DNA of 64,000 nucleotides from NCBI GenBank assembly GCA_964442285.1, contig CAYTZH010000009.1, positions 64,985 through 128,984 on the forward strand, in the 5' to 3' direction. Source of the DNA: an uncultured Spirochaetales bacterium (GTDB lineage: Bacteria > Myxococcota_A > UBA9160 > JAFDET01). Every line of letters starts with the position of its first letter. Position 1 is the stretch's first letter. Under the pieces are notes generated by a model. The model searched no databases. It saw only the letters and a list, made by a program, of their open reading frames with translations, and had not been told where the DNA came from. The translations under genes were made by a program, and so were the position numbers. Positions 6,834-25,858 of the stretch are shown here, in pieces.

Positions 6834-8240
6834 TCAGGCGACGAGGCCGGAGTTGCGCAGCGCCTCGCGCACGAAGCGGTGCACTTGCGGGTGGAACCGG
6901 AAGCTCAGGTGCGCACCCTGGTACCACTCGATGCGCGGCTGCTCCCAGTGCGCCCAGAGGTCCCGCACCTGATCCGGCGTGACCAGCCGGTCGGAGACCC
7001 CGGCGAAGATGTAGCGCCGCTCGTGGGGCACGACGGGCTCGAGGGCGAGCGGCGACACCACCCGCATCAGGGTCTCGGTCCGGGCGCGGTGGATGCCGCG
7101 GCGTTCGCCGGCCTGGATCAGCACCGAGGGCCCGTGGCGCCAGACGGCGCGGCTGATGTCCGCCAGGGGGATGCCGGCGATGGCGCAGGCGATCTCCTCG
7201 TCGAGCCCGGCGAGGAGCGCCGTCTGGTAGCCGCCCAGGGAGAGGCCCAGGACGCCGACCGCGGGCGCGTCCTGGGCGCGCACCCACGAGAGCAGGCGCC
7301 GGATGTCCCACATGGCCTGGGCCTCGGCGTGGATGGTGTCCAGGGCGTCGCCGGCCAGGAAGCCGTCGCCGCTGCGCCGCCCCACCCGGCGCTTGCCGTG
7401 AAAGGGCAGGTTGGGGATCAGCAGGTTCAGCCCGAGGGTGTCGTGGAAGTACTCGGGCGGGAACACGGTGAGGTCGACGGCGGGCATGCCCATCTGGAAG
7501 CCCGGCACGCAGACGAGCCAGGGCCGGGGGCCCCCCTCGTGCCGCTTCACCCAGGCGTGGGCGGTGCGATTGGGCGTGTAGCCGAGCCAGCGTTCTCGGC
7601 CCGGCTCCTCGGGATGGGGCTCGTACCCGCTCTCGAAGGAGAGGTGCTCGTACGCCACCCGGCGGGCGCGGGCCGGACGCAGGGTGACCTCGCGGAGCGG
7701 TGGCGGCGACTGGTGGTAGCGGACCGGCTTCTCCAGCCAGCCGCGCGCCTCGAAGAGGGCCTCGGCCTGCTCGGCCTCCTCGACCATGCGCTCCCAGTTG
7801 CCGGGCCCCGCGTGGGGCAGGGTGAGCTGCATGATGCCGAGGAGCGCCTCGTCGGTCGCCACCTGGGCGGCCAGGGGTATGTTGGAGCGGGGCCGGGGAA
7901 CGTGGAGCTCCGGCCCCTCGTAGCCGACCGTGATGAAGCCGGCGGCCAGGAAGGAGGCGGCGGAGAGCGCGATCAGCGCGAGGCCCGTGAGGGGCCCGGC
8001 CACCCACAGCGACGGCACGGCGAGGGGGATCCCGAGCAGCCCGCCCAGGGCGGTGAACTCGGGGATGCGGATGTCGCCGGGCCAGAGCAGGATGGCCACC
8101 CCGGAGGCGAGCAGCAGGCAGCCGGGAATCACCGAGAAGAGGAAGCCCACGGCACCGAAGCTCGCGGCGCACCAGAGCCAGACCAGACCCGAGAGAATGG
8201 GAACCCAGGCAGCGCGCGGCCAGCGCGGTACTTCGCTCAC
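6834..8240 (-). CDS. Membrane-anchored alpha/beta-hydrolase
   Basis: 468 aa. The N-terminal ~100 aa are hydrophobic (about 4 TM). The C-terminal domain has the nucleophile elbow 'GLSLGG' and the sequence 'LIPNLPFHGKR'. Confidence 0.8.
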   Translation of the reverse strand: MSEVPRWPRAAWVPILSGLVWLWCAASFGAVGFLFSVIPGCLLLASGVAILLWPGDIRIPEFTALGGLLGIPLAVPSLWVAGPLTGLALIALSAASFLAAGFITVGYEGPELHVPRPRSNIPLAAQVATDEALLGIMQLTLPHAGPGNWERMVEEAEQAEALFEARGWLEKPVRYHQSPPPLREVTLRPARARRVAYEHLSFESGYEPHPEEPGRERWLGYTPNRTAHAWVKRHEGGPRPWLVCVPGFQMGMPAVDLTVFPPEYFHDTLGLNLLIPNLPFHGKRRVGRRSGDGFLAGDALDTIHAEAQAMWDIRRLLSWVRAQDAPAVGVLGLSLGGYQTALLAGLDEEIACAIAGIPLADISRAVWRHGPSVLIQAGERRGIHRARTETLMRVVSPLALEPVVPHERRYIFAGVSDRLVTPDQVRDLWAHWEQPRIEWYQGAHLSFRFHPQVHRFVREALRNSGLVA

Positions 8241-8269
8241 GATCGACTCCTCACTCCCGCTCCCCGCTC

Positions 8270-9835
8270 ATGCCTACGATACCCTGCCGGCCAGCCCGGG
8301 TCAGGCGGGAGCGGTCCCGGCTCCCCCGGGCCGGAGGATCCGCATTGCGCGATTTCCGGCGACACGCAGCCGCAGTCCCGACGGGCCTCGTGGTGGCCCT
8401 GGCCCTGGCCGCCGCCGGGTGCGCAGACGAGGCCCCCACGTCGGCGGAGGCACCGCGGGCGGAGGCAGCGGCCGGAGAAGCGGCCGCGCCGGCGATGCGC
8501 AAGCCCCCCGCGCCCTCCCCGGCGATGCGCAAGCCCCCGGCGCCCTCGCCCCACACGCCGCTCCCGGTCCCTCCGCCCGCCAGCGAGCGGGACGCCGCGC
8601 TCGACCGCCTCGCCGCCGAGGTGGAGCCCCAGGTCATCGCCTGGCGCCGCGACATCCACCGCCATCCCGAGCTCTCCAACCGCGAGTTCCGCACCGCCGC
8701 CCTGGTCGCCGACGAGCTGGAGCGACTCGGCCTGGAGGTGCGGCGCGAGATCGCCCACACGGGCGTGGTCGGCCTGCTGCGGGGCGGCCTACCGGGGCCC
8801 ACGGTGGCGCTGCGCGCGGACATGGACGCCCTGCCGGTCCGCGAGGAGACGGGCCTGCCCTTTGCGTCCGAGGAGCGCACCACCTACCTCGGCCGCGACG
8901 TGGGCGTGATGCACGCTTGCGGCCACGACGCCCACGTGGCCATCCTGCTGGGCGTGGCCCGGGTGCTCACCGCGCTGCGGGCGGAGCTCCCGGGAGACGT
9001 GCTCCTGCTCTTCCAGCCCGCCGAGGAGGGAGCCCCCGCCGGCGAGGAGGGCGGCGCGGAGCTCATGCTCGCGGAGGGCGTCTTCGACGACCCGGAGCCC
9101 GTCGCCGTCTTCGGTCTCCACGTGGTCCCCCAGCACGCGGTGGGAGAGATCGGCTACCGGGCGGGGGGCGCCATGGCGAGCTCCGACCGGCTGCGCATCC
9201 TGGTGAAGGGACGTCAGACCCACGCGGCCTATCCGTGGTTCGGCGTCGATCCGATCGCGGCCGCCGCGCGGATCGTGCTCGCCCTGCACGCGATCCCTGC
9301 ACGGGTCGTCGATGCCCGCATCGGCTCGGTGGTCTCGATCGGCGCCATCCACGGAGGCGTCCGCAACAACATCATCCCCGACCAGGTGGAGCTGCTCGGC
9401 ACCATCCGCTCCCTGGACCCGGAGCTCCGCGGTCAGCTCCACCAGCGCGTGCGCGAGACCGCCGAGAAGACGGCCGAGGCGTCGGGCGCCCGGGCCGAGG
9501 TCGAAATCTCCCTCGGCTACCCGGTGACGGTGAACGATCCGGACCTGGTCGCCGCCAGCCTGCCCACCCTGCGGCGCGTGGCCGGCGAGGAGGCCGTCGT
9601 GCGGGCGCCGGCCCGCACCGGCGCCGAGGACTTCTCCTTCCTGGCCGCCCGGGTGCCCGGCTTCTACTTCTGGCTCGGCATCCGTCCCCCGGGCGTCTCC
9701 GCGGAGGACGCGGCCCCCAACCACTCGCCGCGCTTCGTCGTGGACGAGGGCGCGTTGGTGCTCGGGGTCCGGGCCCTGGGCCACCTGGCCTTCGACGCCC
9801 TCGAAGCGGCCCGCACGGCGCCGTCGGGCGGGTAG
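8270..9835 (+). CDS. M20D-family amidohydrolase (N-acyl-amino-acid / hippurate hydrolase-like), probable lipoprotein
   Basis: Motifs 'IHRHPELSNREF', 'ALRADMDALPV' and 'MHACGHDAH'. Lipobox 'LAAAGC'. The start is uncertain; in-frame TTG 8345 would leave a more realistic divergent intergenic gap. Confidence 0.85.
   Translation: MPTIPCRPARVRRERSRLPRAGGSALRDFRRHAAAVPTGLVVALALAAAGCADEAPTSAEAPRAEAAAGEAAAPAMRKPPAPSPAMRKPPAPSPHTPLPVPPPASERDAALDRLAAEVEPQVIAWRRDIHRHPELSNREFRTAALVADELERLGLEVRREIAHTGVVGLLRGGLPGPTVALRADMDALPVREETGLPFASEERTTYLGRDVGVMHACGHDAHVAILLGVARVLTALRAELPGDVLLLFQPAEEGAPAGEEGGAELMLAEGVFDDPEPVAVFGLHVVPQHAVGEIGYRAGGAMASSDRLRILVKGRQTHAAYPWFGVDPIAAAARIVLALHAIPARVVDARIGSVVSIGAIHGGVRNNIIPDQVELLGTIRSLDPELRGQLHQRVRETAEKTAEASGARAEVEISLGYPVTVNDPDLVAASLPTLRRVAGEEAVVRAPARTGAEDFSFLAARVPGFYFWLGIRPPGVSAEDAAPNHSPRFVVDEGALVLGVRALGHLAFDALEAARTAPSGG
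8491..8550 (+). repeat. 2 x 30-nt in-frame tandem duplication inside the M20 gene linker (AMRKPPAPSP x2)
   Basis: 'ggcgatgcgcaagccccccgcgccctcccc' is followed by a near-identical copy. Confidence 0.9.
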
Positions 9836-9844
9836 AATGGCCCC

Positions 9845-12220
9845 GTGAACGAGGCGGCAGCTCGGCGCGACGAGCCTCCCTGGCCCACCGGGTCGACCTC
9901 CCGGACCGTCTTCCTGCTCGACGCGTCGAGCAGCCTGGAGGCGGGACTGCTGCGGGACTGGATCGCGCGCCACCGCCCCCCCGACCTGCCCGAGTCCGCG
10001 GTGGAGACGATCGCGCTGCCCCCGTCCCGCGTCCGCCGACGCCGGGGGCTCGACCCCCGGCTCGAGGAGACCGTCGCTGGCGGCGAGGACGTGCTGCTGG
10101 CGCCGCTGCGCGTGGCCTGGCTGCCGGCGCGGGTGGACGGCGTGCGGGCCGCCCGCTGGCGCGACCTGCTCACCCTGGGCGACCCCCGCGATCCCGGCCC
10201 GCTGCGCGCCCGCTGGACCCTCTCTCGTCACCCGGACCGCTGCCGCGTGGTGGCCGGCGAGCCCGCGCCGGTCTCGGAGCTGCGCGGGCGCTGGCGGGAG
10301 GCGGGCGGCGTCGAGGCCACCATGGGCCTGGCCGAGTTCGTGGCGCGCCAGGCGGCCCTGGCCCTGGAGCGCGCCGAGCGCCGCCTCCGCGGCGCGCGCT
10401 ACAAGGTCCCGCGCTTCGTGCGCGAGGACATCCTCGCGCGCCCGGCGGTGCGCGCGGGGCTCACCGCGCTCGCCCGCGAGCGGGGCGAGCCCGAGGCGCG
10501 GCTGCTGAAGGCCGGGGCCCGGTACCTCGCCGAGATCGCCGCCGCCCACAGCCACTTCGTGATCGACCTGGCGGCGTCGCTCATCCGCCTCCTCTACACC
10601 CAGGGCTACGGCGAGTCGCTGCGGGTGGACCGGCGCCAGCTCGAGGGCATCGCGGCCGTCGGCCAGCGACATCCCCTCGTGTTCCTCCCCTCCCACAAGT
10701 CCAACCTCGACCACCTGGTCCTGCAGTACGCCCTCTACGAGAGCGGGCTTCCGCCCAACCACACGGCCGGCGGGATCAACATGAACTTCTTCCCCGTGGG
10801 TCCCCTCGTCCGACGCAGCGGCGTGTTCTTCATCCGGCGCAGCTTCAAGGACAACTCCCTCTACAAGTTCGTGCTGCGCCAGTACGTCGACTATCTGATC
10901 GAGAAGCGCTTCTCCCTCGAGTGGTACGTGGAGGGGGGGCGCTCGCGCTCCGGCAAGCTGCTGCCGCCCCGCTTCGGCCTGCTCGCCTACGTGGTGGATG
11001 CCTGGCGGCGCGGCAAGGCGGAGAACGTCTACCTGGTGCCCGTCTCGATCGCGTACGACCAGATCTCCGACGTGGAGGACTACGCCGCCGAGCAGCAGGG
11101 CGGCGCCAAGCAGAAGGAGAGCTTCGGCTGGTTCGTCGGCGTGATCCGGCGCATGCGCCGGCGCTATGGCGACATCCACATCCGCTTCGGACAGCCCCTG
11201 TCCCTGGCCTCCGCCCTCGGCCGGGAGGAGCTGGTGTCCGAGCTCGACGCCGACCAGCCGGAGCTGGCGGTCCAGAAGCTGGCCTTCGAGGTCTGCGTGC
11301 GCATCAACCGGGCCACGCCGATCACGCCCACCTCGTTCGTGACCCTCACCCTCCTGGGCACGGGCGACCGCGCCCTCACCGTCGAGCAGATCGGCCTCGC
11401 CATGGGCAACCTGCTGGAGGACGTGCGGCGCCGGAAGCTGCCCACCACCCGGGAGCTCGAGGACCTGGAGACGCCCGACGGCATCCGCCGGGCCCTGGGC
11501 GCCCTCCAGGAGAGCGGGGTGGTGTCGTGTTTCGACGAGGGGCCGGAGGCCGTCTACGCCATCGAGCGCGACCGCCACCACACCGCGGCCTACTACCGCA
11601 ACGCGATCATCCACTTCTTCGTGACCGGCGCGATCGCCGAGCTGGCCCTGCTGCGCGCGGCCGAGCGCGAGGTGGAGGACCCGCCGGCCGAGTTCTGGGA
11701 GGAGGCCATGCGCCTCCGGGACCTGCTCAAGTTCGAGTTCTTCTTCGCGGAGAAGGAGCGCTTCCGGGAAGAGCTCCGCGCCGAGCTGTCGCTCCAGCAC
11801 CCGGACTGGGAGCGGCGGGTGGCCTCGGGGCCGCGCGAGATCGGCCCCCTGCTGCAGTCCCTGCGGCCCCTCAACGCCCACCGCGTGCTGCGCCCCTTCC
11901 TCGACGCCTACGACGTGGTGGCCGACGCCCTGGCCCGACGTCCCGCCGGCGCCGCGCTGGAGCGGGGACCGCTGATCGAGGAGTGCCTGGTGCTCGGGAA
12001 GCAGTACCTGCTCCAGCGACGCACCCGCAGCCCGGAGTCCATCTCGAAGCCGCTGTTCGAGACGGCGCTACGGCTCGCGGAGAACCGCGGGCTGCTCGCC
12101 GACGATCCCGCGGTGCCGGAGCGGCGTCGCGCGTTCGCGGCGGAGCTTCGCGCGGCGATCGGCCGCGTCGACGTGGTCGACGCCATCGCCGCCGCCCGGC
12201 GCGCTGCCCTCCTCAGCTAG
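9845..12220 (+). CDS. plsB: Glycerol-3-phosphate 1-O-acyltransferase
   Basis: 791 aa (PlsB size). HX4D box 'LPSHKSNLDHLVLQY', plus 'FFIRRSF' and 'EGGRSRSGKLL'. Confidence 0.9.
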   Translation: MNEAAARRDEPPWPTGSTSRTVFLLDASSSLEAGLLRDWIARHRPPDLPESAVETIALPPSRVRRRRGLDPRLEETVAGGEDVLLAPLRVAWLPARVDGVRAARWRDLLTLGDPRDPGPLRARWTLSRHPDRCRVVAGEPAPVSELRGRWREAGGVEATMGLAEFVARQAALALERAERRLRGARYKVPRFVREDILARPAVRAGLTALARERGEPEARLLKAGARYLAEIAAAHSHFVIDLAASLIRLLYTQGYGESLRVDRRQLEGIAAVGQRHPLVFLPSHKSNLDHLVLQYALYESGLPPNHTAGGINMNFFPVGPLVRRSGVFFIRRSFKDNSLYKFVLRQYVDYLIEKRFSLEWYVEGGRSRSGKLLPPRFGLLAYVVDAWRRGKAENVYLVPVSIAYDQISDVEDYAAEQQGGAKQKESFGWFVGVIRRMRRRYGDIHIRFGQPLSLASALGREELVSELDADQPELAVQKLAFEVCVRINRATPITPTSFVTLTLLGTGDRALTVEQIGLAMGNLLEDVRRRKLPTTRELEDLETPDGIRRALGALQESGVVSCFDEGPEAVYAIERDRHHTAAYYRNAIIHFFVTGAIAELALLRAAEREVEDPPAEFWEEAMRLRDLLKFEFFFAEKERFREELRAELSLQHPDWERRVASGPREIGPLLQSLRPLNAHRVLRPFLDAYDVVADALARRPAGAALERGPLIEECLVLGKQYLLQRRTRSPESISKPLFETALRLAENRGLLADDPAVPERRRAFAAELRAAIGRVDVVDAIAAARRAALLS

Positions 12221-13185
12221 ACGTGGTTCCGGAGCATGAGCTCCTTCGGGTGCGGCTCCAGGTAGGTCTGGCCCTGGAGGTAGTCCACCTCCTGAGCGCG
12301 GACGTGGTGGCGGATCAGGGTGAGCGGGACCACCAGCGGGACCAGGCCCGCCCGGTAGTCCTCGATGATCCCCAGGATCTCCCGCCGGTCGCCGTCGTCG
12401 AGGAGCTTCCGGAAGTGGCCGATCATGTGGTGCATGGCGTTGACGTGGCGCCGGGGCGTCGCGCGCCGGGCGAGTGCCTCCATGAAGCCACGCAGGTAGG
12501 CGTCGCGCAGCTCGGCGGCAGCAAGGCCCTTGGCCTCGGCCACCAGGCGGCCCAGGGCACGGTAGTGCTCGGGGGCGTGGGCCATGAGCTGGAGCTTGTG
12601 GGCCGTGTGGAAACGCACCAGGTCGCCCTGTCGCCAGCGCCCGTGGAACAGGTCCCGCACCCGTCGGTACGCGAAGATCCGCTCGATGAAGTTCTCCCGC
12701 AGCACGGGATCGTTGAGACGGCCCTCCTCCTCGACCGGCAGCTGTGGGAAGCGCTCGAGCAGGGCCGCGGCGAACAGACCTCGGCCCTTGCGCTCCGGCG
12801 GCCCGCCGGCGGCCGGGTAGAGCCGCACCCGCTCCATCCCGCAGCTCGGCGAGTCCTTCTTCAGGACGTAGCCGCAGAGGTCCAGGTCTCCGAGGGCAGC
12901 GAGCCGCTTCCGGGACCAGGTCTGCATGGCGCGGGTGTGGTCGCTGCCGCTGCGCTCGGCGCGCATCCGCACGTCGTCGCCGTCGCGGACCAGGCGCACG
13001 CTCTCGCGGGGAATCCCCATCCCCACCTCGACCTCGGGGCACACGGCCACCCATTCCACGAACGGGCCGAGAATGTCGGTCAGGAAGCGGTCGCGCTTGT
13101 GGCCGCCGTCGAAGCGCACCTCGCGACCGAGCAGGCAGGAGGAGATCCCGAGGCGAAGCGAGGACTGGCGGGACTCGGGGCGCAC
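12217..13185 (-). CDS. ybgA: YbgA-type fusion protein (DUF523 / TudS-like domain + DUF1722)
   Basis: 322 aa. N-terminal 'LGISSCLLG...VCPEVE...SPSCG' is the Cys pattern of DUF523. C-terminal 'LMAHAPEHYRALGRLVA...HVNAMHHMIGHF' is DUF1722-like. Located next to a photolyase, as in E. coli ybgA-phr. Confidence 0.85.
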   Translation of the reverse strand: MRPESRQSSLRLGISSCLLGREVRFDGGHKRDRFLTDILGPFVEWVAVCPEVEVGMGIPRESVRLVRDGDDVRMRAERSGSDHTRAMQTWSRKRLAALGDLDLCGYVLKKDSPSCGMERVRLYPAAGGPPERKGRGLFAAALLERFPQLPVEEEGRLNDPVLRENFIERIFAYRRVRDLFHGRWRQGDLVRFHTAHKLQLMAHAPEHYRALGRLVAEAKGLAAAELRDAYLRGFMEALARRATPRRHVNAMHHMIGHFRKLLDDGDRREILGIIEDYRAGLVPLVVPLTLIRHHVRAQEVDYLQGQTYLEPHPKELMLRNHV

Positions 13186-13337
13186 GTCGAGATTCTAGCG
13201 CGCAACGAAGAAGCGCGGGCCGATTCGCCCCCCGTCGCCAGCGCCCCTTTGCGACGGATTTCGGATCGACCCGCGCGAACCGTGTCCTTCGAAAGCGAAG
13301 ATGAATGCTCTCCCGCCTTCGTCAAGGGCGTCCCGGC

Positions 13338-14405
13338 CTACACGACGATTCCGTCGTGATCGCAGAGTGCCGCCAGCAGGCTCTCGAGCGCCGCCCGCGC
13401 CCGGCCCGCCCCCTCGTGCAGCCGGCGGTGCAGCGCCGCATCTCCGGGATCGCGGCTCTCGCAGTGCGCCGAGTACGCCTCGAAGGCTGCCAGGCTGCTG
13501 ACCAGGGCCGAGAGATGGTTGGGGCACTCGCAGTCGACACCCGAGGTTATCTCCGCGAGGCGGGCCAGCTGCGCGTCCTCGAAGAGCCGCTCGGGAACCG
13601 GCTGCGGCTCGGCCTCGTTGGATGCGGTGCCTGCCGTCCGGCGGCGCGCCCACTCGAACATGACGAGATCGAAGAGGGTCCGGCGCAGGACCTCCAGCCG
13701 CACGGGAGCACGCACGAGCTTGGCCCCACGGCTGCCGAGCCGGGCCAGGAGCTCGCGGCGCGCGAAGGTGTACACGATCACGGCGACCGCCTCGCCGGCG
13801 GCGGCGAGGAGAGCGTCTACGGTCGCCAGCGGATCCGGACCCAGGGCATCGAGCTCGACCAGCAGCAGGGAGCAGGGCTGGAAGCGGAGCGCCTCGCGGA
13901 GCTCCTCCGGCTGCGCCGCGTCCAGGGCGAGGTCGAAGCCGGCCAGACCATGCGGATTTGCCGTCAGCTGCGCCCGGATGCCCGGTGCGAGCAGCGCCAG
14001 TCGGCGGGCCCTCACGTCTGCGCCGGCGCCGGCGTTCACGTCTGCGCCGGAGCCGGCGTTCACGTCGGCGCCCGCGCTGGCGTTCGCATCGGCGTCGCGG
14101 TCAGGCTTTGCGGGCTGCCGCCCCAGGCCGAGGCCCGCCAGCCGCTCGAGCCGCGAGCGCAGCTCTTCGTCGGAGAGCAACGCCGCGGTGCGAATGGGCT
14201 CTCCGCACTCGGTCAGCGCCTTGAGCAGCTGCAGGCGCACCACGTCCATGTCGTCGTACAGACGCGTGCCGCCCGGCGTCCGACGCGGACGCACGGCGCC
14301 GTGGCGTCGCTCCCAGGCGCGGATCGTGTGGGGATCGAGGCCGGTCAGGCTGGCGACGGTCCCGATCTGATAGCCGTCCACGTCGACGGCGGCCTGCTCG
14401 CTCAT
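13338..14405 (-). CDS. MerR-family regulator, CarH/LitR paralog without B12-ligand motifs and with a Cys/His-rich C-terminal module
   Basis: ATG 14405 follows the SD 'gggagga' and overlaps the photolyase stop as ATGA. The HTH 'IRAWERRHGAVRPRRTPGGTRLY..DVVRLQLL' is nearly identical to the CarH-like protein at 16019. No W-x9-EH or E/D-x-H-x-x-G motif is present. The C-terminus carries 'CECPNH...HC...CDH'. Confidence 0.8.
   Translation of the reverse strand: MSEQAAVDVDGYQIGTVASLTGLDPHTIRAWERRHGAVRPRRTPGGTRLYDDMDVVRLQLLKALTECGEPIRTAALLSDEELRSRLERLAGLGLGRQPAKPDRDADANASAGADVNAGSGADVNAGAGADVRARRLALLAPGIRAQLTANPHGLAGFDLALDAAQPEELREALRFQPCSLLLVELDALGPDPLATVDALLAAAGEAVAVIVYTFARRELLARLGSRGAKLVRAPVRLEVLRRTLFDLVMFEWARRRTAGTASNEAEPQPVPERLFEDAQLARLAEITSGVDCECPNHLSALVSSLAAFEAYSAHCESRDPGDAALHRRLHEGAGRARAALESLLAALCDHDGIVV
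14013..14084 (-). repeat. 3 x 24-nt in-frame tandem repeat encoding the (NAGxGADV)n linker of the MerR paralog
   Basis: The unit 'cacgtctgcgccggcgccggcgtt' is repeated with a few substitutions. Confidence 0.85.
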
Positions 14406-15844
14406 CGCTTCCTCCCGGATGCTCGGGGCCGCTCGGCGGCGGCACGGCTCCTCAGTGCTTCGAACCGCGCGAGCGCGCGCTGGCGCGCCCAGGCGTGGTC
14501 GACGATCGGTTGCGGATAGTCCGGCGCGGCCATCGGCGCGTCCCAGGGGCGGTGCGCCGACTTCCCCCCCAGCGCGGCGAGCTCGGGAATCCAGCGACGC
14601 ACGTAGTCGCCGTCCGGGTCGAAGCGCTCGCCCTGGAGGGTCGGGTTGAAGATCCGGAAGTACGGCTGGGCATCGGTGCCGGTGGACGCGGCCCACTGCC
14701 AGCCGCCGTTGTTGCTGGCGAGATCACCGTCGACGAGATGGCGGTAGAAGAAGTCCTCTCCGCGACGCCAGTCGACCAGCAGGTCCTTGGTGAGGAAGCT
14801 CGCCGCGATCATGCGCACCCGGTTGTGCACCCATCCGGTCGCCGCCAGCTGTCGCATCCCGGCGTCCACGATCGGGTAGCCCGTGCGGCCCTCGCACCAT
14901 GCCGCAAAGCCCTCGGGATCGTCCTCCCAGGCGAGGTCGTCGTACTCCCGCCGGTAGGATTGGTGCCGCACCCGCGGATGCTCGGCGAGCAGCGCGTTGT
15001 AGAACTCGCGCCAGATGAGCTCGTCGACCCACTTCTGCACGCCGTGCTGGGCGCCGGGCTCCTCGACGGCGAGGGTTTCGGCGGCCTCGATGCAGTCCCG
15101 CACCGACAGCATGCCGAAGCGCAGGTAGGGAGACAGCCGCGAGGTGGCGTCGAGCGCCGGGTAGTCCCGACGCTCGGCGTATCTGGCGACGTCGCGCGCG
15201 AGGAAGCTCCGCAGGCGTCGCCGCGCGGCCGCCTCGCCCGCCGGGGGCAGGTCGGGCATCGCGACCGAGTCCGCAGGGCGCGCGGCGGCCGCCGGAAGGT
15301 CGTCGCTGGCCAGGCTCGGAATCGGCGCCGGAAGGCGCGAGGCGCGCACCGGGAGCTCGGGATCCCGAAGCCAGCGAGCCCTCCAGGCCTTCCGGTAGGG
15401 GGAATAGACGGCGTAGGGGCGTCCGGAGGCTGAGCAGACTTCGCGGCTCTCGAATACGACGCGGTCCTTCCAGGTCTCCACCCGCGCTCCAGCCTTCTCG
15501 ACGGCTGCGCGCACCCGCTCGTCGCGCGCTGCGGCGAAGGGGCCGTAGTCGCGGTTGAAGCCCACCACGTCGGCGCGAGACTCGTCCACCAGACGCGGCA
15601 GTACGTCCTCGGGCCGCCCCCGGCGCACGATCAGGGAGGATCCCCGCTCTGCGAGATCCGCGGCGAGGCGGGCGACGCCCTCGAGGAGGAAGCGCGTGCG
15701 TGCCGTGCCGCTTCGGTCGCCGTCGAGCAGCCGCGGGTCGAGGATGTAGACCGGCGCGAGCGCTTCGCTGCGCGCTGCGAGGCGCTCGAGGCCGCGGTTG
15801 TCTCGCAGGCGCAGGTCGCTGCGTATCCAGAAGAGGGTGCGCAT
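14402..15844 (-). CDS. phrB: Deoxyribodipyrimidine (CPD) photolyase, class I type
   Basis: 480 aa. Contains 'LFWIRSDLRLRDN', 'WREFY' and 'DGDLASNNGGWQWAASTGTDAQPYFRIFNP'. Confidence 0.92.
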   Translation of the reverse strand: MRTLFWIRSDLRLRDNRGLERLAARSEALAPVYILDPRLLDGDRSGTARTRFLLEGVARLAADLAERGSSLIVRRGRPEDVLPRLVDESRADVVGFNRDYGPFAAARDERVRAAVEKAGARVETWKDRVVFESREVCSASGRPYAVYSPYRKAWRARWLRDPELPVRASRLPAPIPSLASDDLPAAAARPADSVAMPDLPPAGEAAARRRLRSFLARDVARYAERRDYPALDATSRLSPYLRFGMLSVRDCIEAAETLAVEEPGAQHGVQKWVDELIWREFYNALLAEHPRVRHQSYRREYDDLAWEDDPEGFAAWCEGRTGYPIVDAGMRQLAATGWVHNRVRMIAASFLTKDLLVDWRRGEDFFYRHLVDGDLASNNGGWQWAASTGTDAQPYFRIFNPTLQGERFDPDGDYVRRWIPELAALGGKSAHRPWDAPMAAPDYPQPIVDHAWARQRALARFEALRSRAAAERPRASGRKR

Positions 15845-15963
15845 GGGTCAGCCGGATCCGGATCCGGCCTCCGGGGAGATCGCGGACGCGCCGGAGTGCC
15901 TGGGCGTGCCGTACATTCCCGAGTCGTCGTAGTGATCCGGCCGCAGATTCCTCACACCTGGAA

Positions 15964-15990
15964 CTTGACAGGAGACCGGATCCCGTCAAG
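15964..15990. promoter_or_regulatory. Imperfect 27-bp palindrome with back-to-back TTGAC(-35-like) boxes in the phr / carH divergent intergenic region
   Basis: 'CTTGACAGGA gaccgga TCCCGTCAAG' is a 10-bp inverted repeat with 1 mismatch. It reads TTGACA toward carH and TTGACG toward phr. It is flanked by 11-mers that fit nAnnTnnACAn (15961-15971 plus strand, 16004-15994 minus strand). Confidence 0.35.
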
Positions 15991-16018
15991 GCTCTGTCTA
16001 GATTTGGGGAGATCCTCA

Positions 16019-16939
16019 ATGAAACGAGCCGTGGGGGGAGATGTGGACCGCGATGAGGCGGGCTCCGAGCCGAGCTACCCGCTGGGCGTCGTCGTGCGAA
16101 TGACGGGGCTCTCGGAGCACGTGATCCGGGCCTGGGAGCGACGTTATGGGGCCGTGAGCCCTGTCCGGACGCCCGGTGGCACGCGGCGCTACACGGAGCA
16201 GGACGTGGCGCGGCTCCAGCTTCTGCGCAAGGCCGTCGACGCGGGACACCGGATCGGGGACATCGCGCGCCTCTCGGACGAGGCGCTTCAGGCGCAGGTC
16301 GGCCCGGTCTCGGATCCCGGCCCCGCAACGCCCCTCGACGAGATCCGTCAGGCGGTCGACAGCCTCGACGCCCGGGCCCTCGAAGCGCAGCTGGGGCTCC
16401 AGCTCAGCCTGCTGGGGCCGGTCCCCTTCGCCCGCCGGGTGGCCGTGCCGCTGCTGAGCGAGCTGGGCGAGCGCTGGGCGCGCGGTGAGCTGTCCGTCGC
16501 CGCGGAGCACCTGGTGACCAGCACCACCCGCAGCCTGTTCGGGATGGCGCTCCACGCGGGGTCCCGAACCGATGGTGCGCCGCGCGTGCTCCTCGCGACG
16601 CCCGCGGGCGAGCGCCACGAGTTCGGCCTGCTCGTGGCGGCGCTGACGGTCATGGGCGCGGGCGGAGACGTCGTGTATCTGGGGCCGGACCTGCCGGCCG
16701 AGGAGGTGGCGGCGGCAGCGGGGCAGACCGGCGCGGCCGCGGTGGGTCTCAGTATCGTCAACCTCTCGTCCGGCGAGGCTCGTCGCTACGTCCGCGATCT
16801 CCGGCGCCGACTCCCCGAAGCCACCGCCCTGTGGGTGGGTGGCTCCGCGGCGGGCGACGTCGATGCCGCGGATCGCCTCGACCTCGAGGGTCTGGAGCGG
16901 CGGGTGGGCCTGCTCCTGCAGCAGGGCGGGCACCGCTGA
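16019..16939 (+). CDS. carH: CarH/LitR-type AdoB12-dependent light-sensing MerR-family repressor
   Basis: ATG 16019. MerR HTH, then 'WARGELSVAAEH' (W-x9-EH) and 'GERHEFGLL' (E-x-H-x-x-G) followed by a Rossmann-like B12-binding domain. Confidence 0.85.
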   Translation: MKRAVGGDVDRDEAGSEPSYPLGVVVRMTGLSEHVIRAWERRYGAVSPVRTPGGTRRYTEQDVARLQLLRKAVDAGHRIGDIARLSDEALQAQVGPVSDPGPATPLDEIRQAVDSLDARALEAQLGLQLSLLGPVPFARRVAVPLLSELGERWARGELSVAAEHLVTSTTRSLFGMALHAGSRTDGAPRVLLATPAGERHEFGLLVAALTVMGAGGDVVYLGPDLPAEEVAAAAGQTGAAAVGLSIVNLSSGEARRYVRDLRRRLPEATALWVGGSAAGDVDAADRLDLEGLERRVGLLLQQGGHR

Positions 16940-17019
16940 GACGCCCGAAGCGTCCCGGAAGCTAGACATTCCCCCAGGGGGTGAAAAATCGGTCTCGTGT
17001 CTAGTTTTTTTGGCCAGAA

Positions 17020-17041
17020 TACCTTGACTTTACCTAGACAG
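17020..17041 (+). promoter_or_regulatory. Two tandem 11-bp direct repeats overlapping a TTGACT -35-like box upstream of the sigma gene (candidate CarH operator)
   Basis: 'TACCTTGACTT' and 'TACCTAGACAG' match at 8/11 positions. The second fits the recalled CarH half-site nAnnTnnACAn exactly. Further TAGACA boxes lie at 16962-16968 (plus strand) and 16998-17004 (minus strand). Confidence 0.4.
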
Positions 17042-17076
17042 CGCGCGACCCTTGTCTGCGTACAGGAGGAGTACGC

Positions 17077-18432
17077 ATGTTCAACGAGACGTCGACTTCC
17101 GAGAGCGCGGAGACCCCCACCCCCAGCTCCCGCCGCCAGCAGCGGACCGCGAGCGCCCAGGGCCGCCAGCTCGACCCCGATCTGCCGACCTACACCCTGA
17201 AGGCCTATCTGCGCGAGATTGCCGATGTCCCGACGCTGAGCCGCGAGGAGGAGGGCGAGATCGCGGCCCGCATCCGCTCGGCCACCGAGCGCTTCCGGGA
17301 GCAGGCCGTCGCCGTCCCCTTCGTCGCCGAGCGGATCGTGACCCGCTGGGATTCCTTGCGCGAGGCCGGTCGCTCGACGTCCTCGATGTCCACCCACTTC
17401 CGGGATCCCCATGCGGGCGATCCCGGGCCGGCCCTCGACCGGGCCCTGGGTAGCGTCCGGCGAGAGCTGCGCCGGCTGGCGGAGGCTCCGGCGGAGAGTC
17501 GGGAGGAGATCCGGCGGCGCATGGCGCGCGCGCTGGCTCGCGCCGACGTCGCCCTGCCGCTGCTCGAGGACGCATTCTGCGCCCTGCGCGACGGCGCCCG
17601 CCCCAGCCGGGGACTGGGGCTCCCGGCCGCAGAGCTCCGCGCCTGCCTCGCGGCCCTCGCCGACGCCCTCGACGAGATGTTCGAGGCCCGTAACGCCTTC
17701 ATTCGCCACAACGTGAAGTTCGTCGTGCACCTGGCCAAGGAGTACCGGGGCATGGGCATCGGCTTCCAGGATCTGATCCAGGAGGGCAACCTCGGTCTGA
17801 TCCGCGCGGTCGAGAAGTTCGACCACCGCCGCGGCTTCAAGTTCTCCACCTACGCCGCCTGGTGGATCCGGCAGTCCTTCATCCGGGCCGTCCAGAACCA
17901 CAGCCGCACCATCCGCCTGCCGTCCCACGTCTACGACCTGGCGATCCGGGAGAAGCGGGTGCGCGCCGAGCTCGCCCGCCGCCTGGGCCGGGACCCGAGG
18001 CCGGCGGAGCTGGCCGAGGAGCTGGGCGTGGCGGTGGAGGAGGTGGAGAACCTCCACCAGATCAATCGCCGCACCCTGTCCATCGAGACCGAGAGCGAGG
18101 ACGAGGAGGGGCGCTCCCTGCACGAGCGCATGGGCGACCCCAACGTGGCCGATCCCACCGAGGATCTCACCCGTGAGGCGCTGGGCCCGGCGATGGAGGC
18201 CCTCCTCGTGGGCCTCTCCGAGCGGGAGCGCCAGATCCTGCACCTGCGCTTCGGCCTCCGCAGCGACGAGCCCCACACCCTGCAGGAGATCGGCGAGATC
18301 CTCGGCCTGTCCCGCGAGCGGGTGCGCCAGATCGAGAAGCGGGCGCTCGAGAAGCTCCGCGAAGTGGCGGTGGATCGGGGCCTCCACGGCGCGCTCGACC
18401 GGGACGACCTGGCCACGGACGCAGCTGCCTGA
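17077..18432 (+). CDS. Sigma-70-family RNA polymerase sigma factor (full-length, non-ECF; regions 1.2, 2, 3, 4)
   Basis: SD 'aggagga' lies 7 nt upstream of the start. Contains '[16 protein letters not shown]', '[34 protein letters not shown]' and '[27 protein letters not shown]'. An insert of about 130 aa sits between regions 1.2 and 2. Confidence 0.9.
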
Positions 18433-18510: not shown

Positions 18511-19554
18511 ATGCGATCCATCGATCTCGCAGAGTCCGGCCGCGTCCCCGATGCGCTCATCCGGATCGGTATCCGGCGCATGCTCGCCCGACGTCATCGG
18601 GAGGTGACGGCGGGGGACGCCGAAGCGCGACAGCAGGCCCACGCGGCCTTCGTGGAGGCGCTGCGGCAGAGCCCGATCGCGCTCGTTCCGGAGCGAGCAA
18701 ACGCCCAGCACTACGAGGTTCCGGCCGAGTTCTTCGCCCAGGTGCTCGGCCCCCACCTGAAGTACAGCTGCGGCTACTGGCCAGCGGGCGTGTCGAGCCT
18801 CGAGGCCTCCGAGGCCGCCATGCTCGAAAGGACCTGCGCGCGCGCTGACATACGGGACGGCATGCGTGTGCTGGACCTGGGCTGCGGCTGGGGCTCCCTC
18901 TCGCTCTGGATCGCCCAGCGATTTGCTTCGACGCGCGTCGTGGCGGTGTCGAACTCCAAGCTCCAGCGCGAATGGATCCTGCAGCGCTGCGATCAGGCGG
19001 GGCTCTCCAACGTGGAGGTCGTCACCGCCGACGCCAACCGCTTCGAGCCCCCGGGTCGCTTCGACCGCGTCGTCTCGGTGGAGATGTTCGAGCACCTCCG
19101 CAATTGGGAGGAGATGTTCCGCCGCGTCTCGCGCTGGCTCGAGGACGATGGCCGCTTCTTCCTGCACGTCTTCTGCCACCGGGAGGCCGCCTACCCCTAC
19201 GAGAGCGAGGGCGAGCAGAACTGGATGGGCCGGAACTTCTTCACCGGCGGGATGATGCCCTCCGACGACCTGCCGCTGCACTTCTCGCGGGATCTGCGGG
19301 TGGAGCGCCGCTGGCGGGTCGGCGGGCTCCACTATCACCGGACCTGCGAGGCCTGGCTGCAGCAGCTCGACGCCCGTCGCGACGCGGTGATGCCGATCCT
19401 GGCCTCGACCTACGGTGCGGATCGGGCCCGCCTCTGGCTGCAGCGCTGGCGCCTGTTCTTCCTGGGATGCTCGGAGCTGTTCGCGTGGCAGGGCGGCGAG
19501 GCCTGGTGGGTCTCCCACTACCGGCTGGCTCCGCAGCGGGGAGACCGGTCGTGA
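18511..19554 (+). CDS. CMAS/CFA-synthase-family SAM-dependent methyltransferase (short form)
   Basis: 347 aa. Contains '[24 protein letters not shown]', the SAM motif '[11 protein letters not shown]' and 'VSVEMFEHL'. Confidence 0.85.
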
Positions 19555-20792
19555 AGATCGCCGTCGTGGGCACGGGCATCTCCGGGCTGGCCGTCGCCCA
19601 CGCGCTCCACCGCAACCACGCGCTTACCGTATTCGAGTCCGCGGACTGGATCGGCGGGCACACCCACACGGTGGACGTGGAGATCGAGGGCGCCCACCAC
19701 GCCGTCGACACCGGCTTCATCGTCTACAACGAGCGCACCTATCCCGGTTTCGTCGGGCTGCTGTCCGAGCTCGGCGTGTCGACCCAGCCCACCGACATGA
19801 GCTTCAGCGTGCGCTGCGACCGCAGCGGCCTCGAATACTCGAGCAGCGGTCTGCAGGGACTCTTCGCCCAGCGTCGCAATGCGCTCCGGCCCTCCTTCCT
19901 GCGCATGGTCTCGGAGATCCCGCGCTTCAACCGCGCGGCCCGCGCTCTGCTCGCGTCGCCGGACGAGAAGACCACGCTGGGAGACTGGCTCGACGGGCTC
20001 GGTCTCTCGCGCCAGCTCCGCGACCACTACGTGCTGCCGATGGGCGCGGCGATCTGGTCGACGCCGGCCGGCAAGTTCCTCCAGTTCCCCGCGTCGACCT
20101 TCGCCCGCTTCTTCGAGAACCACGGGCTGCTGGAGACCCGGGAGCGGCTGCCGTGGCGCGTGGTCCGCGGCGGCTCGCGGACCTACGTGGAGGCGCTCAC
20201 CGCCCCGTTCCGCGACCGGATCCGCCCGGGCAGCCGCGTGCGGGCGGTGTGGCGGGAGGACGACGGGGTCCACGTCGCCGCCCCGGGCGGGGTCGAGCGC
20301 TTCGACCGGGTGGTGCTCGCCTGCCACGCCGACCAGGCGCTGAACCTCCTCATCGACGCGGACGGGGCGGAGCGCCAGACGCTCGACGCCTTCGCCTACC
20401 AGCCCAACCGCGTGGTGCTGCACACGGACCGGAGCGTCCTGCCGCGGAGCCGCCGCGCCTGGGCGAGCTGGAACTACCGCACGCCCCGCCAGCCCGAGAG
20501 TCCGGTCGCAGTCACCTACCACATGAATCGGCTCCAGGGCTTCCGGGCCTCCGAGGAGCTGCTGGTGACCCTGAACGACGACGGTGCCATCGATCCCGCG
20601 CGCGTGCTGGAGAGCTGGACCTACCACCACCCGGTGTTCACGCCGGAGGCGATCGCCGCCCAGAAGCACCACGACCGGATCGACGGACGCGACCGCGTCC
20701 ACTTCTGCGGGGCCTACTGGCGCAACGGCTTCCACGAGGACGGCCTCCAAAGCGCCCTCGCCGTGGTCCGCCACCTGGGCGGGGAACGCTGA
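19551..20792 (+). CDS. FAD-dependent oxidoreductase (amine-oxidase/desaturase fold; UfaD-like)
   Basis: GTG 19551 (GTGA overlap). Dinucleotide fold '[16 protein letters not shown]' followed by 'GGHTHTV'. Confidence 0.85.
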
Positions 20793-20793
20793 C

Positions 20794-21576
20794 GTGGAGA
20801 GCTGTCTCTTCGAGGGGATGGTGCGACACCGCCGCTTCGGGCCGGTTCCCCACGGCTTCTCCATGCCCCTCTTCATGGCGTACCTCGACCTGGACGAGCT
20901 TCCGCAGGTGTTCCGGGGCCGCTGGCTTTGGTCGGCCTCGCGGCCCGCCCCCGCCCGCTTCCACCGCAGCGACTACCTGGGCGACCCCCGGCTGCCCCTG
21001 GACCGGGCCGTGCGCGACCTGGTGGAGAACCGGACCGGCATCCGCCCGCGCGGGCCGATCCGGCTGCTCACCCACCTCCGCTACTTCGGGTACGTCTTCA
21101 ACCCCGTGAGCCTCTACTACTGCTTCCACCCGGAGAGCGAGCGCCTGGAGGCGATCGTCGCCGAGGTGACCAACATGCCTTGGAAGGAGCGCCACGCCTA
21201 CGTACTTCGGCCCGACCCCGAAGCGGAGTCCGGCTCCGTCCTCCGCTTCGACGAGGACAAGGCCTTCCACGTGTCGCCCTTCCTCGACATGGACCAGCGC
21301 TATCGCTGGCACCTGCAGGTCCCGAGCGACCGGCTCGTGGTCGGGATCGAGAACCTGGGCCCGCGAGGCGACCGGCTTCACACGGCCTCCCTCGAGATGG
21401 AGCGGCGCGAGATCTCGAGCGCCAGCCTGGCCCGTGCCTTGGTGCGCTTCCCGCTCATGACCCTGCAGGTGACGGCCGGGATCTACTGGCAGGCGCTCCG
21501 GCTGCGCCGCAAGCGCGTTCCCGTCTACCCCCACCCTCGCGAGCGCGAGGTCGCCCTGGAGCTGGCCCCCGAATGA
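20794..21576 (+). CDS. DUF1365-family protein (UfaO-like)
   Basis: GTG 20794. '[33 protein letters not shown]' is the typical DUF1365 N-terminus. Confidence 0.85.
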
Positions 21577-22850
21577 GTGACGCCACCCTTCCCATCGAGA
21601 ATCCGACCCCGGAGATCCAGCCCCTGGGCTGGCTGGACCGGAAGATCCGCAGCGCCGTCCTGGCGCGGCTCGAGCGCCTCGACCGGGGACGGCTGACCCT
21701 GGTGGACGGCGACGAGAAGCGGCGCTTCGGAAACGGGGGCGGTCCCCGGGCCACGGTCTGGGTGAAGCGCGCACGCTTCTACCGCCGCCTGGCCCTGCGC
21801 GGGGGCGTGGGCGCCGCCGAGGCCTACATGGACGGCGACTGGGAGACCAGCGACCTCACCGCCGTCGTGCGGATCGTCGCCGCGAACCCCGGCGCCCTGG
21901 AGAAGCTGGACGTGGGTCTCGCGCGGGTCGCCGGCCTCGGACTGCGCCTCTATCACGAGTTGCGCCCCAACAGCCGGCGCGGCAGCCGCCAGAACATCGC
22001 GGCCCACTACGACCTGGGCAACGACTTCTTCTCCCTCTTCCTCGACCCGAGCCTCACCTACTCCTGCGCGGTCTTCGAGCGCGAGGGCATGAGCCTCGAG
22101 GACGCCCAGGTGGCGAAGTACGAGCGGGTGTGTCGCAAGCTGCGGCTGGGCTCGGACGACCACGTCCTCGAGATCGGCAGCGGCTGGGGGGGCTTCGCGA
22201 TCCACGCCGCGAGCCGCTACGGCTGCCGGGTCACCACCACGACCGTGTCCCGGGAGCAGCTCCAGCTGGCGCGGGAGCGGGTGGCCGCCGCCGGCCTCTC
22301 CGATCGTATCGAGGTGCTCTTCCGCGACTACCGCGACCTGAGCGGCGAGTACGACAAGGTCGTGTCCCTGGAGATGATCGAGGCGGTGGGCGCCCCCAAC
22401 CTCGATACCTACTTCCGCGTCTGCGCGGAGCGCCTGCGACCCGACGGCGCCATGCTGCTCCAGGCCATCACCGTACCCGACCGCCACTGGCAGGTCTCGG
22501 TCCGCAACGTGGACTTCGTGAAGCGGTACATCTTCCCCGGCGGCCAGCTCGTATCCGTCGGGGGCGTCGGCGCCTCCCTGGCCCGAGCGACGGACCTGCG
22601 CATGGCGCACCTCGAGGAGATCACGCCCCACTACGCCGAAACCCTGGCCCGCTGGCGGGAGAACATGAACCGCAACCTGGCCCACATTCGCGCGCTGGGC
22701 CTTCCCGAGCGCTTCCTGCGCATGTGGGAGTACTACCTCTGCTACTGCGAGGGCGGCTTCGCCGAGCGGGCGATCGGGGTATACCAGATGCTGCTGGAGA
22801 AGCCCCTCGCCCGACGCGACCCGATCCTGGGGCGGCTGGAGGCCGCCTGA
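21573..22850 (+). CDS. cfa: Cyclopropane-fatty-acyl-phospholipid-synthase-family methylase (long form; UfaM/Cfa-like)
   Basis: ATG 21573 (ATGA overlap). Contains '[28 protein letters not shown]', '[12 protein letters not shown]' and '[10 protein letters not shown]'. Confidence 0.9.
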
Positions 22851-22885
22851 GTCCGAAACCCGCGAGGGAGCGAAGGAGGAGCCCG

Positions 22886-23440
22886 ATGCGAAAGCAACTT
22901 GCCATGGGAGCCCTGGTGGCCCTGCTGACCGCGACGCCGGTCCGAGCAGCCGTGATCGAGGGCGTGGACTTCGTCGACGCGCGCAGCGAGTCCGGCGTGG
23001 CGCTTCGGCTCCACAACGTGGCGCTGCTGCGCTGGTACTTCCTCAAGGCCTACGTGGCGGCGCTCTATCTGGGAGACGGCGTGGCCCCGGGCCGCGTGCT
23101 CGGCGACGTCCCCAAGCGGCTCGAGATCGAGTACTTCTACGGGATCGGGGCCGAGGACTTCGCGAAGTCCACCCGCGTCACCGTCGGCCGCAACGTGCCG
23201 CCGGGTGCGTACGAAGCACTTCGGACACGCATCGAGCGCTTCAACGCCCTCTACCGGGACGTGAAGCCGGGCGACCGCTACGCCCTGACCTACCTGCCGG
23301 GTCGCGGCACGGAGCTCGCCCTGAACGGAGAGGTGCTCGGACGCGTCGAGGGCGCCGACTTCGCCGCCGCCATGTTCTCGATCTGGCTCGGCGAGGACCC
23401 GGTGGACGACGACCTGAAGACGGACCTGCTGGGACCGTGA
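22886..23440 (+). CDS. Secreted chalcone-isomerase-like (fatty-acid-binding fold) protein
   Basis: Signal peptide 'MRKQLAMGALVALLTATPVRAAV'. Contains 'LKAYVAALYLG' and 'FSIWLGEDPVDDDLK', typical of the CHI-like family that accompanies cfa/DUF1365 clusters. Confidence 0.7.
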   Translation: MRKQLAMGALVALLTATPVRAAVIEGVDFVDARSESGVALRLHNVALLRWYFLKAYVAALYLGDGVAPGRVLGDVPKRLEIEYFYGIGAEDFAKSTRVTVGRNVPPGAYEALRTRIERFNALYRDVKPGDRYALTYLPGRGTELALNGEVLGRVEGADFAAAMFSIWLGEDPVDDDLKTDLLGP

Positions 23441-25823: not shown

Positions 25824-25858
25824 GCCCCGAACCCCCGACCGAGCCTTTCGAGGAGCCC

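Follow-up and report, generated by a model that had tools for sequence, protein, structure and literature searches.

The locus considered here raises the question of how a bacterial regulator that carries the DNA-binding head of a vitamin B12-dependent photoreceptor, and none of its B12-binding parts, can take part in the response to light. The gene lies on the minus strand of a 64-kb stretch of contig CAYTZH010000009.1 (positions 64,985 to 128,984; the whole stretch is hereafter called the window) from a high-GC, probably Myxococcota, genome; it is placed between a photolyase gene (phr) and a gene of RudS type, and close to divergently transcribed genes for CarH and for a sigma-70-family factor. 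In our assessment it is rather likely that its product is a non-B12 LitR-type regulator of class III, acting alongside CarH as a dark-state repressor of light-induced genes, with a Cys/His C-terminal domain that would hold a centre sensitive to light or to photo-oxidation and a middle domain, a pseudo-receiver, that would transmit the signal.

The mechanical list of open reading frames (ORFs) gives a minus-strand frame from 13338 to 14696, which contains an in-frame ATG at 14405. This ATG (14405-14403) is preceded by a GGAGG 6 nt upstream and overlaps the TGA of the photolyase gene (14404-14402) as ATGA; the same 4-nt overlap is present in two related loci, designated L086 and L087. In addition, 68 full-length database homologues align end to end with the protein and their N-termini begin at the same place. 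Because of the ATG/GGAGG pair, the end-to-end homologues and the overlap shared with two relatives, the ORF and its start can be regarded as real. Translational coupling to the photolyase, which the initial annotation had deduced from the overlap, is supported by the coordinates and by its recurrence.

The N-terminal region is a helix-turn-helix (HTH) of the MerR type, and its best sequence match in the PDB is the DNA-binding domain of Thermus thermophilus CarH (residues 22-83, E 1.6e-14). With the HTH of the CarH encoded 1.6 kb away it shares 55% identity over 75 aa, and in the recognition helix and wing the two proteins hardly differ (IRAWERR(H/Y)GAV..P.RTPGGTR.Y), in agreement with the closeness noticed in the initial annotation. 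Pfam and NCBIfam recognise only the MerR HTH in the regulator, the B12 domains being absent: the Pfam search returned no match to B12-binding_2 (PF02607) at E <= 0.01 and none to PF02310, and in the translation the sole tryptophans are W31, within the HTH, and W252, neither of them followed by EH, so no Wx9EH motif is found. A second LitR/CarH-type MerR paralogue without B12 ligands, as first proposed, is thus what the searches describe.

LitR proteins have been grouped in classes. Class I is found in several phyla and binds AdoB12; class II, from Pseudomonas, retains the four-helix-bundle B12-binding_2 domain and acts as effector of short LOV proteins; class III, from Burkholderia, has a C-terminus that resembles no known domain, and its recombinant protein shows a light-dependent absorbance change; classes IV (Vibrio) and V (Micrococcales) are devoid of a B12-binding domain, the function of either being unknown (PMC9758184). 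The motifs that define CarH are Wx9EH in the four-helix bundle and ExHx2Gx41SxV/Tx22-27GG in the Rossmann domain (PMC8156234). The regulator has the CarH-type HTH and neither Wx9EH nor the ExHx2G B12 motif, which separates it from class I. The B12-binding_2 domain kept by class II is also missing, and the AlphaFold2 (AF2) model has a disordered linker and then a receiver-like domain. Class II works with a short LOV photoreceptor, which in P. mendocina is encoded next to pmlR2; no LOV/PAS domain turned up among the scanned ORFs of 8.2-27.1 kb, a part of those of the window. Conversely, each class III feature that could be checked is present: a LitR/CarH-type HTH without B12 domain, a C-terminus unlike known domains, and homology to Burkholderia C-termini. 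For a further class III trait, negative regulation of light-induced genes, genomic context and candidate operators offer support. By its sequence the regulator therefore fits class III, because architecture and C-terminal domain are common to proteins of Burkholderia, the home of this class; the class II label of the initial annotation had conflated the two classes and is abandoned.

The closest genomic relatives are in Myxococcota metagenome-assembled genomes (43-48% identity), with more distant ones in Gemmatimonadales and many Gammaproteobacteria. A 323-aa MerR protein of Burkholderia arboris shares 49% identity in the HTH and 48% over 81 aa in the C-terminal domain (E 4e-21), with the whole motif, and used as a query it retrieves the same family in Burkholderia, Paraburkholderia, Pandoraea and Ralstonia. 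In the B. multivorans member (P0355, 323 aa) the motif is intact, CECPRH...FERYS..C...DA..H, and on these sequences the Burkholderia family found here is very likely the published class III LitR of B. multivorans. The latter requires a non-B12 chromophore (PMC6739363), which was still unknown in the literature up to 2022 (PMC9758184, PMC6739363). The JGI label 'light-induced transcriptional regulator' is attached to several family members, including fragments with the C-terminal domain only. The B. multivorans LitR and the regulator have in common the MerR-type LitR/CarH head and the lack of B12 domains; the Burkholderia proteins, P0355 among them, share the three-part architecture and the CECPxH...FExYS..C...DA..H domain, and they are likewise linked to photolyase, folE and SDR genes. 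Differently from them, the regulator, only about 30-35% identical overall to the Burkholderiales members, has an extra repeat linker and a sub-clade cysteine, C348, and adjoins a B12-type CarH and a sigma-70-family factor. It belongs to a known, partly characterised kind, and its novelty is modest.

What follows the HTH was modelled with AF2 on the alignment of the 68 full-length sequences (mean pLDDT 86). After the HTH and a short helix, the model has a disordered stretch (aa 95-130), an alpha/beta domain (aa 131-235), a long helix (aa 237-261) and three C-terminal helices (aa 277-350). The five-stranded alpha/beta domain superposes on receiver domains in Foldseek (TM 0.75-0.79, rmsd 2.5-3.1 A); its profile matched the Spo0A receiver over the full domain length in the PDB (E 8e-4), while PF00072 was matched in one of 20 family members, weakly (E 0.074). 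The fold is the same as that of receivers such as Spo0A (PDB 5WQ0) and a MerR-linked receiver (PDB 3CNB), and the proline that follows beta5 in them is kept as P234. In contrast to receivers, neither the phospho-acceptor Asp nor the acidic pair is conserved: the position aligned with the former, E184, is E in 37 of the 68 sequences, G in 10, D in 6 and other residues, A and H among them, in the rest, and A-P is found where receivers have the acidic pair after beta1. Since both are not conserved, the middle domain is a pseudo-receiver that is probably not phosphorylated. Y212, F214, L220, L223, G227 and P234 are strongly conserved and located in the predicted beta4-alpha4-beta5 elements, which in receivers form a face that often mediates dimerisation; the pseudo-receiver may serve as an oligomerisation or transmission module. 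The initial annotation had called this segment Rossmann-like and devoid of the His ligand; that it would be the remnant of a B12 domain was rejected, as the comparison with the CarH alignment by hhalign gave a probability of 1.7% and the PDB and Pfam matches are receivers.

The linker that precedes the pseudo-receiver is predicted to be disordered by AlphaFold, and it includes the (NAGxGADV)n repeat. Among 67 aligned homologues, only P0001, a 99% identical metagenomic copy, has this repeat. Judging from the alignment, it is a recent, lineage-specific insertion within a linker common to the whole family, and not, as had been supposed, the element that replaces the Wx9EH helix bundle.

The C-terminal domain is the most distinctive part of the protein. 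Its 85 residues modelled alone reach an AF2 pLDDT of 91.6; Foldseek against the PDB retrieved generic helical hairpins (best E 1.7) and no fold match, Pfam gave no match for the domain and no family common to more than one of 21 members, and a profile search against PDB sequences matched nothing. An intersubunit Cys/His site of the CsoR type offers an analogy at most and is absent from the Foldseek matches. The family is nevertheless large: an index-free search of 1.84 billion representative proteins with the profile of the domain found 1,325 representative clusters at E <= 1e-3, with 1,131 remaining at E <= 1e-10. In the best 150 of the 1,325 clusters the domain lies at or near the C-terminus, and the longest proteins have 300-355 aa, fitting the three-part architecture; a word-indexed search with the same profile gave short fragments only, and the index-free search was needed for the full-length architecture.

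The core of the domain is formed by C292-E293-C294-P295-x-H297, F308-E309-x-Y311-S312, C315, D322, H326 and E341. Conservation was counted over 427 distinct C-terminal domains, a set in which C292, C294, F308 and Y311 were the selection anchors; for these four residues the 68 full-length homologues are informative, and C292, C294 and F308 are invariant in all of them and Y311 is found in 67. Over the 427 domains, E293 and C315 are conserved at 100%, H326 at 99.8%, P295 and E341 at 99%, D322 and E309 at 98%, H297 at 96% and S312 at 95%. H314, the histidine of 'HCESRD', is not conserved, and C348, the cysteine of 'CDH', is present in just 30% and typical of a sub-clade. Of the Cys/His-rich module proposed in the initial annotation there remain C292, C294, H297, C315 and H326, whose conservation among homologues (96-100% in the 427) is near-invariant and far above what chance would give, whereas H314 and C348 fall outside the core. 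The refuting condition set in the initial annotation, a lack of such conservation, thus does not apply to the core residues.

The domain can also be found without the head. At one locus (L081) a 131-aa pseudo-receiver ORF (L081:5570-5965) is followed by a 95-aa ORF with the Cys/His C-terminal domain only (L081:6001-6288, P0094), a natural split sensor; no MerR HTH is found upstream of the pair, which is located between recA and genes of the fatty-acid desaturase and squalene/phytoene-synthase type. Stand-alone C-terminal domains of about 94 aa recur in the database.

The DNA that the regulator may recognise can be approached through its CarH-like head. TGTCTAG occurs in 4 copies in the window, one of them upstream of the carH start codon, at 17 bp, and the other three in the sigma-factor promoter; for the degenerate form TGTCWAG, five of the six sites of the window are within 311 bp flanking carH. 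All five match TGTnnAnnT, which is obtained by reverse-complementing the core of nAnnTnnACAn, the consensus of the CarH repeat (PMC8156234). The phr-carH intergenic block reads CTTGACA-N13-CGTCAAG-N4-TGTCTAG, and it is kept in L086 and L087 with small changes, the first element being CTTGACT and the spacer one base longer. CGTCAAG and TGTCTAG, the half-sites that come last in the block, keep a distance of exactly 11 bp in the window and in both relatives, and the intervening bases differ in all three; this 11-bp spacing is the tandem-repeat geometry of CarH operators. In the same three loci half-sites abut or flank the -35 element of the sigma-factor promoter, which is TTGACA-17 nt-GATACT in L086 and L087 and TTGACA-17 nt-CATGCT in a further relative, L091. 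A generic sigma-70 promoter and terminator scan of 13100-17150 gave no matches, so the promoter proposals rest on the comparison across genomes. The idea of the initial annotation that the regulator and CarH read related, or shared, operators is plausible on these sequences, since their recognition elements are nearly the same and CarH-type half-sites cluster in the two promoters flanking carH.

CarH, or class I LitR, offers the model for how such a protein may work. The DNA-binding domain of the T. thermophilus protein (PDB 5C8D/5C8E) is the closest solved relative of the regulator HTH, the candidate operators have CarH-type half-sites with the 11-bp direct-repeat spacing, and by analogy the same logic, that of a dark repressor released by light, is expected for the regulator. 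CarH differs in having Wx9EH, ExHx2G and the four-helix bundle; the regulator has none of the three, and its middle domain shows no detectable homology to the B12-Rossmann domain. The sequences show the architecture, the conserved residues, the kinship with the Burkholderia proteins, the synteny and the clustering of half-sites; we infer that the regulator is a repressor, responds to light, holds a cofactor at its Cys/His residues and shares operators with CarH, and the sequence of events would be as follows. In the dark the regulator would bind the TGTCWAG half-sites through its CarH-like MerR head; as these coincide in part with the divergent phr/carH promoter and with that of the sigma factor, binding would repress phr-litR-rudS, carH, the sigma-factor gene, cfa and genes of the furan-fatty-acid type. 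Light, or a direct photochemical product, would then alter a cofactor or metal centre at the invariant Cys/His/carboxylate residues of the C-terminal domain; the change would pass via the pseudo-receiver, probably by controlling oligomerisation as the B12 domain does in CarH, and the regulator would be released from DNA. AdoB12-dependent CarH probably recognises the same or overlapping half-sites, and in this case the island would be gated by two chemically different sensors.

A more specific version of this proposal is possible, although less likely than not. The C-terminal domain would be an undescribed sensory module, in which two invariant groups, C292/C294/H297/E341 from the open end of the helical hairpin and C315/D322/H326 from its turn, join across subunits and hold a directly photo- or oxygen-labile Fe-S or metal-thiolate centre; the pseudo-receiver would convert the loss of this centre into an oligomeric change, and the protein would work beside AdoB12-CarH on shared 11-bp-repeat operators. 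If this were true, the photoprotection island, including its own sigma factor, would be under two-input control, B12-dependent for green-blue light and non-B12.

Some observations weigh against the proposed light-responsive repressor. The half-sites could belong to CarH alone. Many Myxococcota relatives have no recognisable light genes within 8 kb in the tblastn survey, whose stringent thresholds left many loci unannotated, so that all co-occurrence counts are lower bounds. The third point concerns the ligands, the proximities of which were derived from predicted helix boundaries and not from coordinates: C292, C294 and H297 are at the N-terminal end of the second helix, about 22 residues long, and C315 is at its C-terminal end. 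Since the two groups sit at opposite ends of this helix, in the model C292/C294/H297 and C315/D322/H326 cannot form one intramolecular site. In an antiparallel hairpin E341 would be expected opposite H297, and D322 and H326 opposite C315, which leaves two possibilities, either a Cys2-His-Glu and a Cys-His-Asp site in each subunit or sites between subunits.

Other explanations of the same architecture have to be compared with it. The regulator might not be a photoreceptor itself and act on DNA as the effector of another protein that senses light, the likeliest being the co-translated member of the photolyase/cryptochrome family (CPF). A precedent exists in class II, a non-B12 LitR family (PplR1-3 of Pseudomonas putida, PmlR2 of P. 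mendocina) that regulates light-induced genes of the phr, cfa/ufaM and folE type: it is a separate short LOV protein, bound to their N-terminal domain, that switches these proteins, as for PmlR2 with PmSB-LOV, and they leave DNA on binding the light-activated partner (PMC9758184). Such a role would be in line with the ATGA coupling to phr, seen in the window and in both L086 and L087, and with the position of a CPF gene, which in at least seven gammaproteobacterial loci comes directly downstream of the regulator and in B. arboris is divergent from it. The C-terminal half of the regulator differs from that of class II. Against an effector role, the absorbance change with light was reported for recombinant class III LitR alone (PMC9758184), and many family members lack a CPF gene in the vicinity and adjoin SDR/folE instead; moreover, autoregulation within a light-induced operon would account for the adjacency just as well, and the near-invariant Cys/His set would be left without explanation. 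Taken as a whole, a pure effector role appears distinctly improbable.

That sensing may be metal- or redox-based had been suggested in the initial annotation. A closer competitor, unlikely but deserving more weight than the effector role, is that the Cys/His module responds to stress of a photo-oxidative or redox kind (singlet oxygen, peroxide, NO, thiol oxidation, or damage to Fe-S or Zn-thiolate sites), light acting only indirectly. Ligand sets of Cys/His/Glu/Asp are typical of redox-sensitive Zn or Fe-S sites, such as those of SoxR and of ChrR-type Zn anti-sigma factors. SoxR is a [2Fe-2S] redox sensor of the MerR family, and RsrR/NsrR-type regulators have mixed Cys/His/Glu cluster ligation; a small set of Cys, with His or Glu, could underlie sensing in a similar way here, by analogy only, as motif, fold and position are all different in the regulator and no sequence or fold similarity to these proteins was found. 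The regulated island is itself a photo-oxidative-stress gene set, and a MerR-like regulator of the phr operon in Vibrio cholerae was interpreted as mediating the effects of blue-light reactive oxygen species (PMC5241685); the Vibrio protein, however, belongs to class IV in the published scheme (PMC9758184). The spectral change reported for the purified class III protein favours, by analogy, a direct sensor and thus argues against an indirect action of light, but an Fe-S or metal centre in air could also give it, and it is compatible with air-dependent Fe-S or thiolate chemistry. Far less credible than either is an ordinary metal-responsive MerR protein (of the Zn/Cu/Cd/Hg type) sitting by chance in a photoprotection cluster. 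MerR membership, conserved Cys/His and weak NCBIfam matches of the HTH to ZntR, CueR and MerR would agree with it, but these matches are confined to the HTH and reach 18-26 bits against cut-offs of 117-168, and the best HTH relatives are CarH and MlrA. The coiled-coil dimerisation helix and the C-terminal metal or cluster loop (CX2CXCX5C in SoxR) are replaced by the pseudo-receiver and a novel domain; neither in the window nor in syntenic relatives is there a linked gene for metal efflux, the context being consistently light-related.

The reading as a class III LitR-type sensor-repressor has some consequences. A C-terminus described as similar to nothing is resolved into a pseudo-receiver and a helical domain of 85 aa, in which about a dozen residues are near-invariant; these include three Cys, two His, two Glu, one Asp and one Tyr, concrete targets that make the way class III LitR senses light directly testable. 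What is new is the dissection into domains, the set of conserved residues, the limit that geometry sets on where a cofactor could be held, the size and spread of the family, its natural split variant without HTH and, in one Myxococcota lineage, the conserved association with CarH and a sigma factor. The Myxococcota cluster, with CarH, a class III LitR, a sigma factor and putatively shared half-sites, is a natural system for the integration of two sensors at one promoter, and a new non-B12, genetically encoded light switch would be of interest for optogenetics.

As to the neighbourhood, phr, the regulator and rudS follow one another on the minus strand of the island, and the plus strand carries carH, the sigma-70-family factor, CFA synthase, an amine oxidase, DUF1365, a second CMAS, a chalcone-isomerase-like gene, an MFS transporter, an acyltransferase and DUF1295. 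L086 and L087 (56-59% identity) share the layout of the window with, in addition, a DCC1-like gene ahead of phr; in L087 the regulator is followed by DPRP, RudS and NmrA genes. In L091 rudS-phr-DCC1 is divergent from carH-sigma-regulator, and the regulator overlaps the sigma gene by 4 nt. The features of the window are collected in Table 1.

Table 1. Features of the window, with positions counted from its first nucleotide.
Feature	Position	Strand	Details
Class III LitR-type MerR regulator gene	13338..14405	-	355 aa; stop codon 13338-13340; ORF, ATGA overlap, homologues, Pfam
CarH/LitR-type MerR HTH of the regulator	14181..14372	-	aa 12-75; PF13411, E 3.9e-15
24-bp tandem repeat	14012..14094	-	3.1-3.5 copies; encodes the (NAGxGADV)n linker
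Receiver (CheY)-like domain	13701..14015	-	aa 131-235; no conserved phospho-acceptor pocket
C-terminal Cys/His domain, three predicted helices	13341..13589	-	aa 273-355; AF2, conservation, family search
Class I CPD photolyase gene (phr)	14402..15844	-	PF00875 and PF03441; NCBIfam deoxyribodipyrimidine photo-lyase, E 3e-128
Candidate operator, phr-carH intergenic region	15964..16001		half-sites TGTCAAG 15964-15970 (-), CGTCAAG 15984-15990 (+), TGTCTAG 15995-16001 (+)
CarH (class I LitR) gene	16019..16939	+	divergent; both B12 domains, Wx9EH and ExHxxG
Three TGTCTAG half-sites, putative sigma-factor promoter	16962..17040		16962-16968 (-), 16998-17004 (+), 17034-17040 (-); flanking a -35-like TTGACT
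Sigma-70-family sigma factor gene	17077..18432	+	451 aa; regions 1.2, 2, 3 and 4
RudS-type gene (TudS desulfidase-DUF1722 fusion)	12217..13185	-	PF04463 and PF08349
M20 peptidase gene	8270-9835		real gene under a 1,809-aa artefact ORF
PlsB-like glycerol-3-phosphate acyltransferase gene	9845-12220		real gene under the same artefact ORF

RudS, which joins a TudS desulfidase and DUF1722, is a de-modifying enzyme of tRNA 4-thiouridine (PMC11417400). Its gene is on the same strand as the regulator, 152 bp downstream of it; a TAGAAT box stands immediately before the GTG start and no CarH-type half-site is found in the gap between the two genes, and from its sequence rudS may have its own promoter. 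The sigma-70-family factor comes right after carH, downstream of it, both in the window and in L086, L087 and L091, and another locus (L008) has a sigma homologue near a class III-type regulator; the gene order, with the CarH-type half-sites of the sigma-factor promoter, suggests a light-induced cascade through a non-ECF (extracytoplasmic function) sigma factor, unlike the ECF factors CarQ and LitS. The lipid-modification run that comes next (18511-27093, plus strand), from CFA synthase through DUF1295 and with a FAD-type amine oxidase, is typical of photo-oxidative-stress and furan-fatty-acid clusters. The DCC1-like thiol-disulfide oxidoreductase is the first gene of the phr operon in relatives (L086:5489-5950, L087:6091-6552, L091:3032-3532); it is missing in the window, where phr begins directly opposite carH.

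In other members the partners vary, and the gene types of the conserved context (photolyase/cryptochrome, RudS, CFA synthase, folE and SDR) match those reported as light-induced under class II LitR control in Pseudomonas (PMC9758184). Some members are paired with an SDR gene and folE, for GTP cyclohydrolase I (L088:6226-7878; Caballeronia, L085:7929-9525), and others with an SDR gene alone (L090:349-1116, L092:4994-5737), a pairing that hints at a link between the class III-type family and pterin synthesis. In B. arboris (L084:5188-7005, minus strand, and 10056-11576, plus strand) the gene from which the regulator diverges is a photolyase-related one of DPRP/FeS-BCP type, and the regulator itself is upstream of a class I photolyase gene, at about 2 kb, and downstream of a folE homologue, at about 6 kb; the replicon, of 3.5 Mb, is called a plasmid in PLSDB and is almost unannotated.

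Finally, the mechanical list of the window includes very long ORFs rich in Arg, Pro and Gly, for example one of 1,809 aa at 7930-13359 on the plus strand, which are in the wrong strand or frame; they are artefacts of the composition, about 72% G+C, and no genes, and under the example just given the M20 peptidase and PlsB-like genes are found.

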